This document shows, piece by piece, positions 7,823-24,049 of a DNA stretch of 36,087 bases. This DNA comes from Candidatus Uhrbacteria bacterium (lineage in GTDB: Bacteria > Patescibacteriota > Patescibacteriia > UBA9934): NCBI GenBank assembly GCA_023246145.1, contig JAHFIZ010000002.1, positions 1 through 36,087 on the forward strand, read 5' to 3'. Positions within the stretch are counted from its first letter, which is position 1, and every line of letters begins with the position of its first letter. A program made the translations under genes and the position numbers. The notes beneath the pieces were generated by a model that did no database searches, was not told where the DNA came from, and worked only from the letters and a program-made list of their open reading frames with translations.

Positions 7823-7931
7823 AGTAAAACCACGGATTTGATTCCCATTTTGTCATATTCTACACGATTATGCTATTCTTTTAGCTACAATCTGCCTAAA
7901 CTCTGTTCTTCGAACAGGGCATGGCGAAAAT

Positions 7932-8074
7932 ACCCACGCTAATAAAGACGGTCTCGTGACCGACTCCATTAGCGTGGGTCTGTATTCGAAAGGATACAGG
8001 GCGATTCCGAAAGGTTTCGTCGTCGGTTCGCGGGACCTTTTGTGTTCCGCAAAAATCAAATCCCACGCTAATAA
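7932..8074 (+). promoter_or_regulatory. structured 5' leader with three copies of an 11-13 nt element able to form mutually exclusive helices
   Basis: acccacgctaat (7932-7943) and its exact reverse complement attagcgtgggt (7968-7979). A third direct copy cccacgctaataa (8062-8074) ends 1 nt before the ATG at 8076. Further small hairpins lie at 7980-8001. Confidence 0.4.
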
Positions 8075-15396: not shown

Positions 15397-15426
15397 CCTC
15401 GCATGGCTAGGTGTTCAAGCGTTCTT

Positions 15427-15465
15427 AGCCGCCCCCTCCTCTGAGTGTGGGCGGCTTCGCGTTTG
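15427..15465 (+). terminator. possible terminator after the Cys-rich gene
   Basis: agccgccc (15427-15434) pairs with gggcggct (15449-15456) across a 14-nt loop. The T-tract is weak (tcgcgtttg). Confidence 0.4.
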
Positions 15466-15564
15466 CAGGGAGAAACGAAAGGGTTAAGATATGAACACCT
15501 AGGGCTTGCCTGTCAATCGTAAAGATGACAATATAGATCTTGTCATTTCAAACAATATCTCTCT

Positions 15565-17388
15565 ATGTGTGGCATTATAGGCTTTGTTGGGAACGATTCT
15601 AGTGTCAACTATTTACTTGACGGCTTGTCCATCCTTGAAAACAGAGGGTATGACTCGGCCGGCATTGCCACTATTTCTCCTCAGAAAAATCTGGTGGTCA
15701 CCAAATTTGCCAGTAAGGGCACAGCGGACGCTATAGCCCAGCTCAGACAGCACTCTTCCGCCCACGCCGGACACACTATTGGGATAGGCCACACCCGCTG
15801 GGCTACCCACGGAGGCAAAACAGACAATAATGCCCACCCACACACGGACAGTAAGAATCGCGTGGCCGTGGTGCACAACGGGGTTATAGAAAACTATTCT
15901 GAACTCAAGAAAAAACTGGTTGATCACGGAGTGGCTTTCCGCTCAGACACGGATACGGAAGTCATAGCCCAGCTCATAGGAAAATATTTAGACGACGGCC
16001 AGGGAATTGTGGATGCCGTAAAATCTACGCTCAAACGTTTAGAAGGAACGTGGGGACTGGGCATTCTCTCTCCCCTTCTCCCGGAAACCATCATCGTGGC
16101 CAGAAACGGCAGCCCGATTGTCATTGGCATTGCTGACGGCAAAGCGTTCATAGCTTCTGAGCCAGCCGCCTTCTCCATGGCCACACGAGATTTCATATCG
16201 CTCCAGAATGGCGAAATGGCGCTGGTGCGCGCAGACGGCAGCGGATTAGATTTAAGCCGCGTAGAAAAAGCGGAAGAAGATGCGGTGGCGGCGAGCCCTG
16301 ATCCGTATCCACACTGGACCATTAAAGAAATTTTAGAACAACCTGATGCCGTCAGCAGAACACTGAACCACGGCGCTCGTTTAAAGGGCGAAGCCGGAGC
16401 TAAGCTCGGCGGACTTGAGACTCGAGAGGAAGAACTGATGAGCATTCATCATCTGGTGATTGCGGCGTGTGGCACGTCATATCACGCCGGTCTTTACGGA
16501 GCGCTAGCCATGCGCGCCATGCACTCTTTTGAAACGGTGCAAGTAGTGGATGCTTCTGAACTGACCGCTCATCACTTCCCGCAAAAGGGCGGCGGACTTT
16601 TGGTTATTTCACAGTCTGGTGAAACCAAAGACGTGCATCGCGCTATCACCCTGGCCGAAAATCTGGGCATCCCTACATTCTCTGTGGTGAATGCCGTAGG
16701 ATCACTCATTGCGCGCTCCACAAAATGTGGTGTGTATCTGAATGCCGGACGCGAGCATGCGGTAGCTTCCACGAAAGCTTTTGTGACCCAAGTTACTGCT
16801 CTCGAACTCATCGCCACTTGGTTCTCTGAACGCCGCGGTGAAGAAGTGGCTCGCCGCAGATCGCTCATTGAAGATTTACGCCGTTTGCCTACCAATCTCA
16901 GACTCGCTTTTGATACGCGGGAAACATGCAAGGAAATTGCGGCCACGCTCGTAGACGCAGAGCACATGTTCGTACTTGGCAAAGGTTCAGCCGAACCTAT
17001 TGCAAGAGAAGGTGCTTTGAAAATTAAAGAGATCACGTACCTGCACGCAGAAGGTTATCCGGGCGGAGCACTGAAGCACGGACCGTTTGCACTGATCACG
17101 GAAGGCACGCCCGTCATTCTCATTGTCCTCAATGACCGCCATGCTCAGCTCATGCGTACCGCCGCAGAAGAGGTTAAAGCTCGCGGCGCGCGCACCATCA
17201 TCATCACGGATAATGCAAAACTAGCGGAAGGCGTAGCGCATGACACCATCCTCATCCCCCCAGACGGCGTCCTGACCGGACTGACCGCCACCATTCCGCT
17301 CCAATTTATTGCATACGAACTAGCAGTCCTCAAAGGCATAAATCCAGATAAGCCGAGAAATCTTGCTAAAGCGGTAACTGTAGATTGA
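15565..17388 (+). CDS. glmS: glutamine--fructose-6-phosphate aminotransferase (isomerizing)
   Basis: 607 aa. Starts MCGIIGF (Ntn Cys2), has two SIS domains, and ends ...NLAKAVTVD, characteristic of GlmS. Confidence 0.95.
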   Translation: MCGIIGFVGNDSSVNYLLDGLSILENRGYDSAGIATISPQKNLVVTKFASKGTADAIAQLRQHSSAHAGHTIGIGHTRWATHGGKTDNNAHPHTDSKNRVAVVHNGVIENYSELKKKLVDHGVAFRSDTDTEVIAQLIGKYLDDGQGIVDAVKSTLKRLEGTWGLGILSPLLPETIIVARNGSPIVIGIADGKAFIASEPAAFSMATRDFISLQNGEMALVRADGSGLDLSRVEKAEEDAVAASPDPYPHWTIKEILEQPDAVSRTLNHGARLKGEAGAKLGGLETREEELMSIHHLVIAACGTSYHAGLYGALAMRAMHSFETVQVVDASELTAHHFPQKGGGLLVISQSGETKDVHRAITLAENLGIPTFSVVNAVGSLIARSTKCGVYLNAGREHAVASTKAFVTQVTALELIATWFSERRGEEVARRRSLIEDLRRLPTNLRLAFDTRETCKEIAATLVDAEHMFVLGKGSAEPIAREGALKIKEITYLHAEGYPGGALKHGPFALITEGTPVILIVLNDRHAQLMRTAAEEVKARGARTIIITDNAKLAEGVAHDTILIPPDGVLTGLTATIPLQFIAYELAVLKGINPDKPRNLAKAVTVD

Positions 17389-17394
17389 TGTATT

Positions 17395-17424
17395 CATACT
17401 TTCTTTTCCCAAAAAGAAAGTATG
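17395..17424 (+). terminator. perfect 12-bp hairpin just after the glmS stop (no U-tail)
   Basis: catactttcttt (17395-17406), loop tcccaa, aaagaaagtatg (17413-17424). It is followed by caaagaaag, not a T-run, so its function as a terminator is uncertain. Confidence 0.35.
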
Positions 17425-18171
17425 CAAAGAAAGTGGCCGCCCTGTGCTCCGTGCGCCGGGCATGGCTCACGTCGTCGTTCGGGCATTTTTGGAGTCGGCC
17501 AGTTGTACTTGAAGATTTGTCTTTGTGGAGTGGCCGTCTGCAAAAATGCTATTCCTCACTTCCGCCGGAGCCAAAGCCCGTCGTACTCGCAGTGGGCGGT
17601 TACTCCATCCTGAAAAGAAAGTACGAACACCCTAAACGAAAAAGACGACGTCTGCATTTTCCACCGGCACGGGGAGAACACAAGACGCCATCTTTCGGGA
17701 GAAGTTGCTGGAGCTACGGGGACTCAATGCAGGAGTTGGTGGGGCGCCCCTCCAACCGAACACCAGGGGCCCAGAGCGGTCAACCAGGAGTGGTTTCGTT
17801 CTGGCACGTTCCTGTAGCGAATACCTGTAAGTCCAGCAACGGACGGTATCAGACGCACGAGGGCGTCTGAAGAAATCGTTGAACCTCAATAGCTCCTTTT
17901 GGCCGTCCGGTTTACCGGGGTGGACTTCCGATCACCCACGCCACCCAGCGCGGGTGGGACAACTGGCGCAGACGCGGCGAGAATCCCTCGTGTGGTAGGT
18001 TGGCACCCGTTGTCGTACTGGAAGGTCACGACAGTATTTTAGACGAGGAGAAATCGCGATCACGCCTCACGCCAGCTGACCAGTCAGACTGACAAAACGA
18101 TCCGTCGAGGTTCAACGACAGGGGGAAAATCCTACCATTTCCACCAAAAAAAGCAAATCACAGGCCCAAAG
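17425..18171. other. long ORF-free, hairpin-rich spacer; candidate structured RNA or decayed gene
   Basis: The only ORFs are 17385..17870 (+), its nested 17422..17613 (+) and 17632..17889 (-). Their Arg/Ser/Pro/Trp-rich translations do not look like protein. Contains an 11-bp perfect long-range complement (17877-17887 with 18107-18117) and local hairpins at 17849-17870 and about 17735-17757. Confidence 0.3.
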
Positions 18172-18213
18172 CAAAAGGGCGATGTCCACACACGTATGTG
18201 TGAGACATCGCCC
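18172..18213 (-). terminator. probable murF terminator
   Basis: A 16-17 bp hairpin: gggcgatgtccacaca (18177-18192), loop cgta, tgtgtgagacatcgccc (18197-18213), with one bulge. On the minus strand it is followed by ttttgcttt. It lies 140 nt downstream of the murF stop. Confidence 0.5.
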
Positions 18214-18354
18214 TCGGTTGGCCCTCCCGCCAGATGATATGCCGCTCGACCGAACGTATCCTTGAAAACAGGGAGGCCGCTTAGCCCTTATCCCTACGCT
18301 GGATGCCGTGTCAGTCGAGCGAACAGACCATCTTACCCCAATATCAAATATTTA

Positions 18355-19647
18355 TCAAGTGGCGAGCCACTTGCCGTCCTGACGGACCAATATTTGCGGG
18401 GCTTTTAGCGGTTCGGCCATAACATCCTTAACCACCTTTTCCATCCGCATGGATTGGGAACCTTTTACAAAAACTACGTCCCCTTTTTGAATGATTTTGT
18501 CTAAATATCGGCCAGCTTCTACGGAATTATTAAACCGCTCCACCCTATCTTTGCTCATACCGGCTGCTACAGCCTCATCTGCTGCCAGACCCATATTTGG
18601 CCCTACTGCCAGGAAGAGATCCGCTGCGCGCGCTACGTGCGCTCCCACGGCCCGGTGCTCAGATTCCGTCAGGGTTCCAAGTTCTGCCATATCTCCCAAA
18701 ACGGCAATGCGTCTGTCCCGCTCTTCGCCTGGGGTGAAACGCAGAAGCGCATCCAAACCAGCCGTAACTGCGGCCGGAGCGGCGTTATACGTGTCGTCGA
18801 TGATCAAAGCTCCCTTAATTCCTGGGATAGGATTGAGGCGGCCGGCAACTGGCCGAAGCTTCTCAGACAAAGCGCGAGCAGCGTCAGACAGCGGCACGCC
18901 AAAGTGTACGGCCACAGAAAGAGCTGCCAGAGCGGCGGTAAGCGCTGAAGCCGAAAGGCAGTTGATGAGTTCAAGGGCGATAGTCTCCCCGTTCACGGAC
19001 ACGTCCGCTTTAAGGACAGCGAAAACCTCTCCAGGATCAAAACTCTCTTCCGGTACAGTTTCAATGCGAACGTTGGCTGCCTTGGCGTCACCTGACTCAA
19101 TACCGTACATCATCACTGATACAGAACCGTAACGTCCTCTCATGAGGCGGACCGTTTCATCATTGTCATTTAAAAATATTGCGCCATCTGCTTTTACAAA
19201 ATCTCCAAGCGATGCCTTCTCTTCAATGAGCGCCTGCATGGAAGGATACTGGGAAAGATGAATGGGCGAAACTGCCGTAATAACCGCTACGTCTGGCTGC
19301 GCAATCTGAGCAAGGTACCTAATGTCACCAGGAGCGTCTGCGCCGTATTCTAAAACCAAATATTCCGGCATGTCCTTCTTGGTGTATGCACGCTTCAAAA
19401 GCTTCAACCATTCCCAAGCATTCTTGCCCGGGCTCTTCTCCCCCAAAATAGCGAGTGGCAAACCAAACTCGTTATTGTAATTCTTCATGGGCGTGCGCAC
19501 GCGATATTTTGCTTCAAGCGCAATAGCAATAGCCTGGCGCGTAGAAGTTTTACCCACGGAGCCCGTGATAGCCACTACTTTTGGATGAAATTTTCTCAAA
19601 TTCTTTCGAGCCGCATTTCCTAGGAGGCTCATGACAAGTTTTTTCAT
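18355..19647 (-). CDS. murF: UDP-N-acetylmuramoyl-tripeptide--D-alanyl-D-alanine ligase
   Basis: 430 aa. Mur ligase P-loop ITGSVGKTSTRQ and LIIDDTYNAAP, the MurF-typical DDxYNANP-like motif. Adjacent to a PBP gene. Confidence 0.9.
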   Translation of the reverse strand: MKKLVMSLLGNAARKNLRKFHPKVVAITGSVGKTSTRQAIAIALEAKYRVRTPMKNYNNEFGLPLAILGEKSPGKNAWEWLKLLKRAYTKKDMPEYLVLEYGADAPGDIRYLAQIAQPDVAVITAVSPIHLSQYPSMQALIEEKASLGDFVKADGAIFLNDNDETVRLMRGRYGSVSVMMYGIESGDAKAANVRIETVPEESFDPGEVFAVLKADVSVNGETIALELINCLSASALTAALAALSVAVHFGVPLSDAARALSEKLRPVAGRLNPIPGIKGALIIDDTYNAAPAAVTAGLDALLRFTPGEERDRRIAVLGDMAELGTLTESEHRAVGAHVARAADLFLAVGPNMGLAADEAVAAGMSKDRVERFNNSVEAGRYLDKIIQKGDVVFVKGSQSMRMEKVVKDVMAEPLKAPQILVRQDGKWLAT

Positions 19648-21560: not shown

Positions 21561-21989
21561 TTATGCTCCCTGTAAATCTTCCTCAGTCAATTTCTTGCCG
21601 TAGGCCGCAGACATCTCTCCGGTAGACTGCTCCTCCATGAGACGAATAATCTCTCCGCTGCCGGTTTCATATTCTTTGAAGGAGACCACCTTTCCACCGT
21701 CTTCCGCAGACATAGTGGCCGTACCCTCATAGGAAAACTCATAATCCTGTCCGCCGTAGACCACAATTTCATCTTCCGGCTCTATCTCCTCATCTACATC
21801 TTCAAAAAGAATGATCTCCTCCCCTGCCGGGTCAAGAGATAGCCAAAGCCCGTCCCGACTGTGGACCCAATACACGGTTTCTCCGGTCTCAAGCAAAATA
21901 GGTTCTACGCCACGGGGATGAAAAGTCTTATCCCGTACCACCACAGACTGGTCATTTTCTAAATGCTCAAGAGCTTCGTTGATTTTCAT
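21561..21989 (-). CDS. hypothetical acidic cytoplasmic protein (possibly DUF4178-like)
   Basis: 142 aa, first gene of the ftsI-murF transcription unit. Asp/Glu-rich (DVDEEIEPEDE). The family assignment is only a vague recollection. Confidence 0.5.
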   Translation of the reverse strand: MKINEALEHLENDQSVVVRDKTFHPRGVEPILLETGETVYWVHSRDGLWLSLDPAGEEIILFEDVDEEIEPEDEIVVYGGQDYEFSYEGTATMSAEDGGKVVSFKEYETGSGEIIRLMEEQSTGEMSAAYGKKLTEEDLQGA

Positions 21990-22054
21990 ATATTTTTACT
22001 AACCCGAAGGGGCCAAAAGATGTTACAGGTCAGGTCCTGATTATACAGAGGCTC

Positions 22055-22093
22055 AAAGACGAAAAGAGACGAGGCTGTTGATACCTCGTCTCC
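22055..22093 (-). terminator. intrinsic terminator after nrdA
   Basis: Minus strand reads gagacgagg-tatcaacag-cctcgtctc followed by ttttcgtcttt. A TATAAT (plus-strand attata at 22040-22045) follows as a possible -10 for the next operon. Confidence 0.65.
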
Positions 22094-22147
22094 CCCCTTA
22101 TGTCAATCACTTTTCGCGCCGTTGTACGGGCGACACGCGCGTAGCCC

Positions 22148-24049
22148 CTACTGGCAAACGGCGCACTCTTCTGTAGTCACATCACGTTTCTCGGATTGGA
22201 TAGCAATAGAGTCTGCCTGAATAGGCGCGGCTGAACGAACGTAGTACAGGCTCTTCACGCCGCTCTTCCAAGCGAGCATATGCACCTCATGGAGATACTT
22301 TCCGCTAATAGGCGTTTCAAAGAAGAGGTTCAGAGACTGGGCCTGGTCAATATACTTCTGACGGGCCGCAGCCTGCTCCACAATTTCTCGCATGTTCATT
22401 TCATAGGCCGTACGGAAGATAGCTTTTTCTTCCGGCGTCATGAAGTCCAGGTTCATCACGCTGCCCTTGTCTGCCACCACGGTCTTCCAGACCTCTGCAT
22501 TATTCTTCCCCTTGGTCTCCAAGAACTGTTCAAGATACTTGTTCTTTACGAGGAAGCTGCCAGAGAGCGTCTTCTGTAAGAATGCGTTACCGGCAATAGG
22601 CTCAATGCACGGGCTAGCCTCACCGCAGAGGAAGGCCGTGGAAGCCGTAGGCTGAATGGAGGTCACGTAACTGTTGCGGCGGGTTCCCCCATCAAGCGGC
22701 AAACCGCGTTCTGCGGCCAGCTTTTCTGAGGCAGCGTGGGCGTGCTTGTTCAGGTTAGAGAAAATCTCCGTATTGATGCTGCGAGCCATGACGCTTTCAA
22801 ACGGCACGCCGCGGCGCATGAGATAGCTGTGGTAGCCCATGACGCCAAGACCTACGGAACGCTCATGACGTACAGAGTTCACGGCCTTCTTAAACTCCAC
22901 CGGATCTGCCATTTCACAGAACGTTTCCAGGTTGTTATCAAGTGCTTTCACGCAGGCGTAGGCAATCTCCTCAAAATGATCCTTCCATTCATCGTACTTC
23001 TCCAAGTTCAAGCTCCCCAGACAGCAGACGGCGGTACGGGTTTCATCTGTAGGCAAAACAATTTCCGTGCAGAGGTTGCTCTGACGAACGAGCAAACCTT
23101 TTTCTACGTGGTGCGCCGGACGAGCAGCATTCACGGTATCAATAAACAAGATGTACGGTTCTCCGGTTTCTGCACGCATGGAGAGAATCTTGCGCCACAT
23201 AGTCATGGCATCAATCTCTTTAGCTACCGTGCCGTAATGTGGATCAACCAATTTATACGTAGTTCCGGCTTCTACCGCGCGCATGAACTCATCCGTAACC
23301 ACAATGCCGTTGTTGATGTTCAGGCACCGGCGGTCCTGATCTCCCCCTGGCTTGCGCATTTCCAAAAAGTCTTCAATATCCGGGTGATCAATGCGGAGAT
23401 ACGCTGCGGCGGCACCGCGACGCATGCTGTTCCTTGAAATAGCAATGGTTTCCGAATCCATGATCTTCAAGAACGGGATAACACCGGAAGAACGGAGGCC
23501 GGAAGCCTTTAGTGGCGCGTTCTGACCGCGGAGCTGTGACCAATCCGTGCCAATACCCCCGCCGTATTTGGAAAGGAATGCGTTCTCACGGAAAACATCA
23601 AAGATTCCTTCAAGCGTGTCTGGAACGGTGTTCAAGAAACAGGAAATAGGCAAACCCTTCTTGCTCCCAATGTTCATGAGCGTAGGGGTAGCCGCAATAA
23701 ACCAGCCCTTGCTCAAAATGTCATAGAGCTGCTGGGCGTGCTCCCGGTCCCCACGGGCCATACCCGTGGCCACGCGCGCATAAAACATCTGTGGGTTCTC
23801 CACAATCTTGTCATCAGCGCTCCTGAGGAAATACCGATCACGCAGCACTTCAAGTCCAAAGTATGTGGTGCTCGCATTGCGGGACTGGTCAATCTGAATG
23901 CCATCTTGAATAGAACGGTCAGCAGTGTAATGCGGGCTATCAGCGCTATGAAGATCTTTGGTTTGATCCATGATCTCCGAGAGAAGCAAGTCCCGGGCGG
24001 CACCAAGATCATTACTTGAAAGCGCATCAATGACCGAGTTATATGGCAT
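22148..24049 (-). CDS. nrdA: class I ribonucleoside-diphosphate reductase, alpha subunit (no ATP-cone)
   Basis: 633 aa. Contains PTLMNIGS, SCFL, the catalytic SNLCTEI, GLGVMGYH and a C-terminal Cys pair CAVCQ. Confidence 0.9.
   Translation of the reverse strand: MPYNSVIDALSSNDLGAARDLLLSEIMDQTKDLHSADSPHYTADRSIQDGIQIDQSRNASTTYFGLEVLRDRYFLRSADDKIVENPQMFYARVATGMARGDREHAQQLYDILSKGWFIAATPTLMNIGSKKGLPISCFLNTVPDTLEGIFDVFRENAFLSKYGGGIGTDWSQLRGQNAPLKASGLRSSGVIPFLKIMDSETIAISRNSMRRGAAAAYLRIDHPDIEDFLEMRKPGGDQDRRCLNINNGIVVTDEFMRAVEAGTTYKLVDPHYGTVAKEIDAMTMWRKILSMRAETGEPYILFIDTVNAARPAHHVEKGLLVRQSNLCTEIVLPTDETRTAVCCLGSLNLEKYDEWKDHFEEIAYACVKALDNNLETFCEMADPVEFKKAVNSVRHERSVGLGVMGYHSYLMRRGVPFESVMARSINTEIFSNLNKHAHAASEKLAAERGLPLDGGTRRNSYVTSIQPTASTAFLCGEASPCIEPIAGNAFLQKTLSGSFLVKNKYLEQFLETKGKNNAEVWKTVVADKGSVMNLDFMTPEEKAIFRTAYEMNMREIVEQAAARQKYIDQAQSLNLFFETPISGKYLHEVHMLAWKSGVKSLYYVRSAAPIQADSIAIQSEKRDVTTEECAVCQ

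Follow-up and report, generated by a model that had tools for sequence, protein, structure and literature searches.

Palindromic intergenic repeats resembling MITEs (miniature inverted-repeat transposable elements) occur in bacteria as ERIC/IRU in enterobacteria, Correia/NEMIS in Neisseria and Rickettsia palindromic elements (RPEs) in Rickettsia. The locus compared with them here is the spacer between glmS and murF of a Candidatus Uhrbacteria bacterium, which lies in a stretch of 36,087 nucleotides (the window; contig JAHFIZ010000002.1, here C3) of an assembly of 0.89 Mb in 76 contigs that is 95% complete. These two genes are convergent and are separated by 966 nt (17389-18354), with glmS ending at 17388 and murF at 18355, which agrees with the length given in a first-pass annotation of this DNA that proposed one large structured RNA for the spacer. 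As ~1-Mb Patescibacteria genomes have little spare DNA, a 1-kb non-coding stretch stands out. Our analysis suggests, with a probability of about 0.6, that the spacer is a patchwork of independently acquired hairpin elements between the convergent genes and not one large RNA. A copy of a dispersed hairpin repeat (17389-17630) adjoins glmS and is followed by an insert (17657-18167); the murF terminator and an extra 95-nt hairpin would make up the remainder.

The spacer compared with its relatives

The closest available relative is the metagenome contig Ga0172380_10001900 (L053), whose MurF is 97% identical. L053 aligns with the window from glmS through 17616 and resumes at 18352, with 74 nt in L053 in the place of ~700 nt in the window. 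L053 has one murF terminator, which aligns to the window at two places, one at each end of the insert, with no match between them. The whole L053 terminator hairpin corresponds to 18168-18231 (46/64 identical, score 28 against a shuffle maximum of 14), and its arm and tail correspond to 17633-17656 (20/24 identical, score 16 against a shuffle maximum of 13). This indicates that the core, 17657-18167, is an indel bounded by a duplicated piece of terminator; the right flanking repeat (18168-18190) overlaps the murF terminator. Within the assembly itself, only the first 212 nt of the spacer recur (C13:242-449, 84% identity), at a locus between a membrane-protein gene and the groES promoter. In the sole other contig with an identical MurF, the gene spacing is unchanged. 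The features of the spacer, with window coordinates, strand and predicted folding (z-scores relative to shuffled sequence), are the following.

17389-17424, plus strand: short AU-rich palindromic unit abutting the glmS stop, a 13-bp perfect hairpin (17395-17424) and then GCAAAGAAAG
17431-17605, plus strand: long imperfect hairpin of 175 nt, a copy of the dispersed repeat (211.7 bits with covariance model R1; fold z = -7.8)
17608-17630, strand unassigned: third arm, which is complementary (89% over 19 nt) to 17390-17408 and directly repeats 17407-17422
17633-17656, no strand given: repeat flanking the insert on its left, a diverged copy of the terminator arm and tail that is present once in L053
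17640-17696, minus strand: D4, terminator-like hairpin with a U-rich tail, UUUUUCGUUU, extending to ~17632
17704-17841, no strand given: D3, branched hairpin with 31-nt closing arms (74% complementary), including the GC palindrome 17735-17756
17849-17871, no strand given: D2, 8-bp hairpin (z = -5 to -6 on either strand)
17876-18119, minus strand: D1, three-branched domain of 244 nt closed by a 15-bp helix, an extension of the 11-bp complement in the first-pass annotation
18126-18153, minus strand: weak promoter-like site TTGCTT-N16-TAGGAT (7/12 consensus positions), not reported by the promoter scan
18165-18215, minus strand: murF intrinsic terminator, hairpin 18176-18214 with a CUUUUGCUUU tail, homologous to the single L053 terminator
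18235-18330, minus strand: extra hairpin domain of ~95 nt, closing stem 18243-18253/18311-18321 (z = -5.2)
18330-18358, minus strand: promoter-like site TTGATA-N17-TAAGAT (9/12 positions), overlapping the murF stop codon

The region had been described as non-coding and heavily structured, and this is borne out, with folding far better than that of shuffled sequence. All of the hairpins listed in the first-pass annotation are present, including the 8-bp stem at ~17850-17871 and the palindrome 17735-17756. The complement 17877-17887/18107-18117 is part of a helix with 15 pairs on the minus strand (13 Watson-Crick and two G-U), and the hairpin 17395-17424 has 13 perfect pairs, not the 12 that were counted. 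A 16-bp hairpin that was taken to bound the structured core is also present (18176-18214, 11-nt perfect arms and inner pairs) but is the murF terminator, which is conserved in L053. The core itself, a single ~750-nt RNA at 17425-18171, did not survive the comparison, as it joins unrelated parts with different strands and histories. Absence from close relatives had been named in advance as grounds for rejecting this core, and L053 lacks it. It is true that the entire spacer is non-coding and hairpin-rich, as one structured RNA of about 750-950 nt would require. However, such an RNA is highly improbable given that its parts differ in history and in preferred strand, that the strong terminator at 18176-18214 and D4 lie inside or between them, that minimum-energy folds contain no long-range helix between repeat and insert, and that the core is missing from L053. 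A stack of hairpin elements explains both the appearance of a large RNA and the spurious ORF (open reading frame) calls made by gene callers.

Folding was also set against chance. The minus strand of 17632-18122 has a predicted energy of -215 kcal/mol against -171 +/- 6 for shuffles (z = -7.35), and the long hairpin region 17389-17625, the first 237 nt of the spacer, has z = -7.8. Among 67 random 244-nt windows of the assembly, the mean z was -0.76 (standard deviation 1.7) and 2/67 were at z <= -6, while other long spacers of the assembly likewise hold windows at z -6 to -7. This places the region in the top few percent, exceptional but not unique. ORF-free stretches at C31:903-1548, C50:6142-7473, C36:13737-14481, C36:18300-18980 and C1:19153-20016 contain 250-nt windows at z -5 to -7.4.

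The length of the glmS-murF spacer varies within the genus between 0 and 966 nt and its content is unrelated between species, some of which have small ORFs in it, as would be expected of a site that acts as a sink for insertions. The nearest species representatives with the same gene pair, G006 and G008, have spacers that are non-coding, equally structured and unrelated in sequence. Immediately past the murF stop, both have strong promoters, with matches at 10 to 11 of 12 positions, that lie on the murF strand. The G006 spacer (880 nt; locus L011, G006:C2 2821-3660) holds two highly structured promoter-to-terminator non-coding units on the murF strand, with promoters TTGACT-N17-TATATT and, with an upstream TG, TTGACA-N17-TATGAT; that of G008 holds one promoter-to-terminator non-coding unit, also on the murF strand.

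The presence of ORFs in this spacer in some congeners, and of a 160-aa ORF annotated on a public contig, could be taken to mean that a protein-coding gene, like one of the small genes that follow murF in G001, G007 and G013, has decayed in the spacer. The evidence makes this very unlikely. The three ORFs that had been noted (17385-17870 plus, the nested 17422-17613 plus and 17632-17889 minus) do exist, and none is credible as protein, as had been judged. Eight spacer ORFs gave no Pfam match, and a tblastx comparison of relatives' spacers was empty. The 161-aa ORF is without a homologue in a search of 5.8 billion proteins, and its frame is broken by indels that separate the window from L053 in the hairpin tip. 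The 85-aa minus-strand ORF was considered as a gene and rejected, its matches to three unrelated multi-repeat proteins being inflated by summed 30-aa repeats and judged spurious. No homology indicative of a decayed gene, which according to the first-pass annotation would have overturned the RNA interpretation, was found in these searches. The ORF 17385-17870 (plus), which runs across the repeat into the insert, is annotated on a public Logan contig (SRR14366796) as a gene of 160 aa; this call is very probably an annotation artefact.

No catalogued RNA had been recognised in the spacer, and Rfam covariance models, among them those for riboswitches, group I and group II introns, OLE, GOLLD, ROOL and HEARO, gave the same result, with zero matches at E <= 10 in 17300-18450. 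At gathering score, Rfam 15 models detected only LOOT (7893-8018) and one tRNA in the whole window, and nothing in the G006 and G008 spacers or in the second repeat copy. The models for RNase P, 6S and small signal recognition particle (SRP) RNA (RF00010, RF00013, RF00169) found nothing anywhere in the assembly, the tmRNA of which is located on C33. These blanks would be explained if the spacer were a divergent housekeeping RNA (RNase P, SRP or 6S) that the Rfam models miss, which is extremely improbable. RNase P RNA sits at other loci in 13/15 congeners, and the RNase P RNAs of G001, G006, G008 and G010 have no significant blastn match anywhere in the assembly. Since the conserved blocks of type A RNase P carried by congeners, GGAGGAAAGTCCGAACAC and ACAGAATTCGGCTTA, are missing from the entire assembly, the gene probably falls in an assembly gap and the spacer is not a hidden RNase P. 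Furthermore, if the RNA were essential, L053 would not lack it at this position; copies of the repeat number 2 to 13 per genome; and the spacer search was empty even at E up to 10.

Two observations on these RNAs concern other genomes. RNase P RNAs of the genus are unusually long (to 609 nt), with large insertions, and some score under the Rfam cut-off (50.8-83.9 bits); long examples lie at G010:C4:7987-8595, G004:C5:45119-45671 and G008:C2:66315-66842. The small SRP RNA model detected its target in 0/26 genomes of the order and in 12/14 control genomes, and the SRP RNA of the order is either very divergent or was overlooked by this first-pass search.

A dispersed hairpin repeat family

The hairpin next to glmS belongs to a dispersed, structure-conserving repeat family that is restricted, as far as searched, to this Patescibacteria family. 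Covariance model R1 was built on the plus strand from three close copies, among which there are nine compensatory pairs. Matches to R1 were detected in 16/68 genomes of the GTDB family, with two copies in this assembly (the second at C13:237-408, minus strand), 11 in G132 and a maximum of 13 in G020. Copies are intergenic and occur in all orientations relative to neighbouring genes, and several lie at contig ends. An exact-motif scan for the conserved core in 185,579 species gave matches only in G132 and G129.

Covariation supports the hairpin across the family. In an alignment of 16 copies from eight genomes, which was model-fitted and hence leans towards structure, 89.6% of cells were paired, compared with 36-43% when partners were slid. 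Double-sided changes were present in 46/55 pairs, a level reached by 0/500 shuffles. The mid-stem motifs CGUCAUCGCUCGGGCA and UGCUAUUCCUCGC are retained from genus to genus, whereas covariation is seen in the basal and apical helices. Covariation, a test of which had been recommended in the first-pass annotation, supports the dispersed repeat (17389-17630) and no other part of the spacer. Family cells include 34 G-U and 26 A-C, a balance that indicates no strand bias in the repeat family, as expected of a DNA palindrome; the window copy is strand-asymmetric in folding despite this.

In G132 the repeated unit consists of a U-rich stretch, the short AU-rich hairpin, GCAAAAGAA and the long hairpin, and copies are near-identical save for a variable tip that defines sub-lineages. 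Relatives of the genus have the short AU-rich unit either by itself or in front of the long hairpin, and it is present in 11/11 G132 copies. An A-rich linker joins the short AU-rich hairpin to the 175-nt hairpin. L053 retains just part of the third arm and the C13 copy lacks it; this arm could be a duplicated target or one half of a further short palindromic unit. When the variable tips of G132 copies were considered as guide sequences, they matched their own flanks no better than the flanks of other copies. Several G132 copies (loci L146-L156) are preceded by other short repeat families, for example GTCATYCCGGRC... and ...GAGCGAAG...GGGATCTCTT, which shows that different repeat types cluster head to tail.

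The window copy and that of L053 have arms that are 95% and 97% identical, with an intervening tip that is 60% identical and still paired through compensatory change. By comparison, third codon positions are 55% identical in glmS and 57% in murF, and the repeat arms rank in the top 1-6% of 60-nt windows in a 6.7 kb alignment with L053. Because the tip has diverged while the arms on either side of it are conserved, recent recombination is ruled out; the pattern indicates purifying selection on the arm sequences. The window copy is inherited and under purifying selection on both arms, with a tip that drifts yet remains paired. The evidence for purifying selection on an inherited repeat copy is unusually clean. 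Conservation of the arms while flanking synonymous sites are near saturation argues that at least some repeat copies are kept for function.

We suggest that the family spreads as DNA through an enzyme acting in trans and that retained copies may serve as insulators or ends of transcripts, or be bound by protein as hairpins. Candidate enzymes were sought among Y1_Tnp (PF01797) genes, which are present in 49/68 family genomes, comprising 15/16 repeat carriers versus 34/52 non-carriers, all of them related genomes and not independent samples. There are up to nine such genes per ~1-Mb genome, and many of the proteins are 200-310 aa in length with a moderate profile match. The nearest Y1 gene to a repeat copy in G020 is ~27 kb away, and a strong Y1 match in G132 (contig C7) is part of an ordinary IS200/IS605-type contig with no R1 match. 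TnpB (PF07282) was absent.

The insert and the murF 3' region

In the predicted fold, the insert consists of four hairpin domains in a row, each self-contained, and ends with a terminator on the minus strand. Two of these domains favour the minus strand: D1 has a modelled energy of -114.7 kcal/mol on the minus strand (z = -6.7) and -91.8 on the plus strand (z = -2.2), and D4 of -30.0 (z = -5.7) versus -20.6 kcal/mol (z = -2.9). For D3 the z-scores were -3.9 (plus) and -2.8 (minus). Homologues of the insert were detected neither by blastn (162 genomes of the order; 400 from across the phylum), nor by blastn and nhmmer in 667 kb of fetched loci of relatives, nor in phage and plasmid collections. 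A single-sequence covariance model of D1 (R2), applied to the 68 family genomes and to the G006, G008 and L053 loci, retrieved nothing beyond generic hairpins, and R1 run with filters off for degenerate repeat copies within the insert likewise gave generic hairpin matches only.

As the insert is without any conservation, the most likely explanation, favoured over a strain-specific RNA, is that it is a relic of selfish or foreign hairpin DNA. One or more such elements would have landed in a neutral site between two terminators, and the insert would be transcribed at most as read-through or from a weak promoter. Two particular origins were considered and rejected. A Tn7-type insertion at attTn7 does not fit, as the variable insert begins ~270 nt past the glmS stop, not ~25 bp, and adjoins the murF terminator, and as the spacer contains no arrays of 22-bp transposase-binding repeats and no transposase remnants. 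Foreign origin through a phage or plasmid was also rejected, there being no phage match and a lone plasmid match of 39 nt to the short AU-rich hairpin.

Several points weigh against the patchwork reading. In the case of the repeat, no consistent target duplication was found: the 16-nt direct repeat that flanks the window copy (17407-17422/17608-17623) is present neither at the C13 copy nor at the 11 G132 copies. No Y1 transposase gene is adjacent to any repeat copy among the Y1_Tnp hits of G020, G132 and this assembly. Mobility of the repeat is thus deduced solely from copy number and distribution. In the case of the insert, no transposase, terminal inverted repeat or target duplication typical of known mobile elements was found. 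Three of its properties resemble those of an RNA gene, namely a fold that is much better for the minus strand (z = -6.9) than for the plus (z = -3.05), a good minus-strand terminator (D4) that closes it, and a GC content of 0.573, the highest of the long non-coding stretches checked in this assembly (genome 0.507, spacers ~0.49). Furthermore, the strong promoters of G006 and G008 fire, at the equivalent place, into non-coding structured sequence, which hints that transcription units at the glmS-murF junction may be real. Finally, the comparison rests on a single close relative, L053.

These properties raise the possibility that the insert is a genuine strain-specific structured non-coding RNA gene of ~480 nt on the minus strand (~18119 to 17632), starting at the weak promoter 18153-18126 or through read-through of the murF terminator, ending at D4 and being one of several fast-evolving RNA genes at this junction. 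We regard this as possible but doubtful. The minus-strand fold (z = -7.35), the strong strand asymmetry of D1 and D4, the elevated GC and the terminator-like end with its U tract are all as expected of such a gene, and the promoter-to-terminator units of G006 and G008, on the same strand of the same junction, keep this interpretation alive. However, the insert is missing from the nearest relative, and no search recovered a homologue in sequence or structure, hence there is no covariation. The TTGCTT-N16-TAGGAT that had been offered as a possible promoter is present on the minus strand but is weak, with 7/12 positions, and falls under the threshold of the promoter scan. A strand asymmetry of ~3 z-units is also seen in other structured windows of the assembly, and in the repeat copy next door, whose family shows no strand bias. 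No single fold closes the insert globally; it is made up of separate long hairpins strung one after another. A wider proposal, that the murF-glmS junction is a nursery of fast-turnover RNA genes in which the 480-nt unit and the G006 and G008 units are real, lineage-specific large non-coding RNAs and the 175-nt repeat is a functional RNA or protein-binding module and not just selfish DNA, is unlikely. The relic interpretation of the insert is retained, and the insert provides a testable candidate for a strain-specific structured RNA.

On the murF side of the terminator, the extra hairpin at 18235-18330 has no counterpart in L053, where just ~55 nt separate the murF stop from the terminator. At the position of the promoter-like site 18330-18358, stronger sites (10/12) are present in G006 and G008. 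The flanking genes are glmS (15565-17388, plus strand; TIGR01135 profile match of 588 bits) and a gene for a MurF-like ligase of 430 aa (18355-19647, minus strand), which matches TIGR01143 (murF) with 260 bits, slightly below the cut-off. The label 'Patescibacteria group bacterium' goes with relatives of this MurF protein at 70% identity, and 'Candidatus Uhrbacteria' with those at ~52%. Elsewhere in the window, 15404-15635 and 21721-22495 are among the 60-nt windows most conserved with L053; the former spans the start of glmS with the region upstream of it, and there could be a conserved leader in it. The LOOT RNA (RF03000) is full-length, lies on the plus strand in a tRNA-linked island and scores 77 bits against a gathering score of 46.4.

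Comparison with known repeats and RNAs

A literature search returned nothing specific on intergenic repeats or RNAs of Patescibacteria. The elements of the spacer were compared with known systems. Like OLE, GOLLD, ROOL and raiA RNAs, the insert occupies a long, GC-rich part of a spacer, is predicted to fold exceptionally well and has a terminator. Those RNAs are defined by conservation over many genomes, whereas the insert has no Rfam match or homologue and is missing from L053. Parts of the spacer resemble the Rho-independent terminators found between convergent genes, in that 18176-18214 is followed by a U tract and D4 has the same layout; in contrast to a plain terminator spacer, terminators cover only ~110 of the 966 nt.

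The repeat shares with REPINs, which are associated with RAYT (Y1 HUH) proteins, its conserved inverted arms, variable tip and long vertical persistence, and, as in REPIN/RAYT hosts, genes with a Y1_Tnp domain are common in the family (49/68 genomes, 15/16 carriers). It differs in that no Y1 gene lies beside any copy and in its arms of ~60 nt each, much longer than REP.

As with ERIC/IRU, Correia/NEMIS and RPEs, the repeat is an imperfect palindrome of the 100-250 nt class with several dispersed intergenic copies per genome. It is patchy among relatives, has near-identical copies in one genome and keeps its hairpin by paired changes. The segment 17389-17630 displays two characteristics of MITE-like elements, dispersed copies with a patchy distribution and a long palindrome kept across copies. 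In contrast to those repeats, it has no sequence similarity to catalogued elements, its most conserved part is mid-stem (GGGCA / UGC-UAUU-CC) and not at the termini, it lacks a consistent target duplication, a separate short AU-rich hairpin is always ahead of it, and its orthologous copy shows strong purifying selection. The positive finding with the most support is a new repeat family, uncatalogued and absent from Rfam, that is a constrained member of the palindromic intergenic repeat class.

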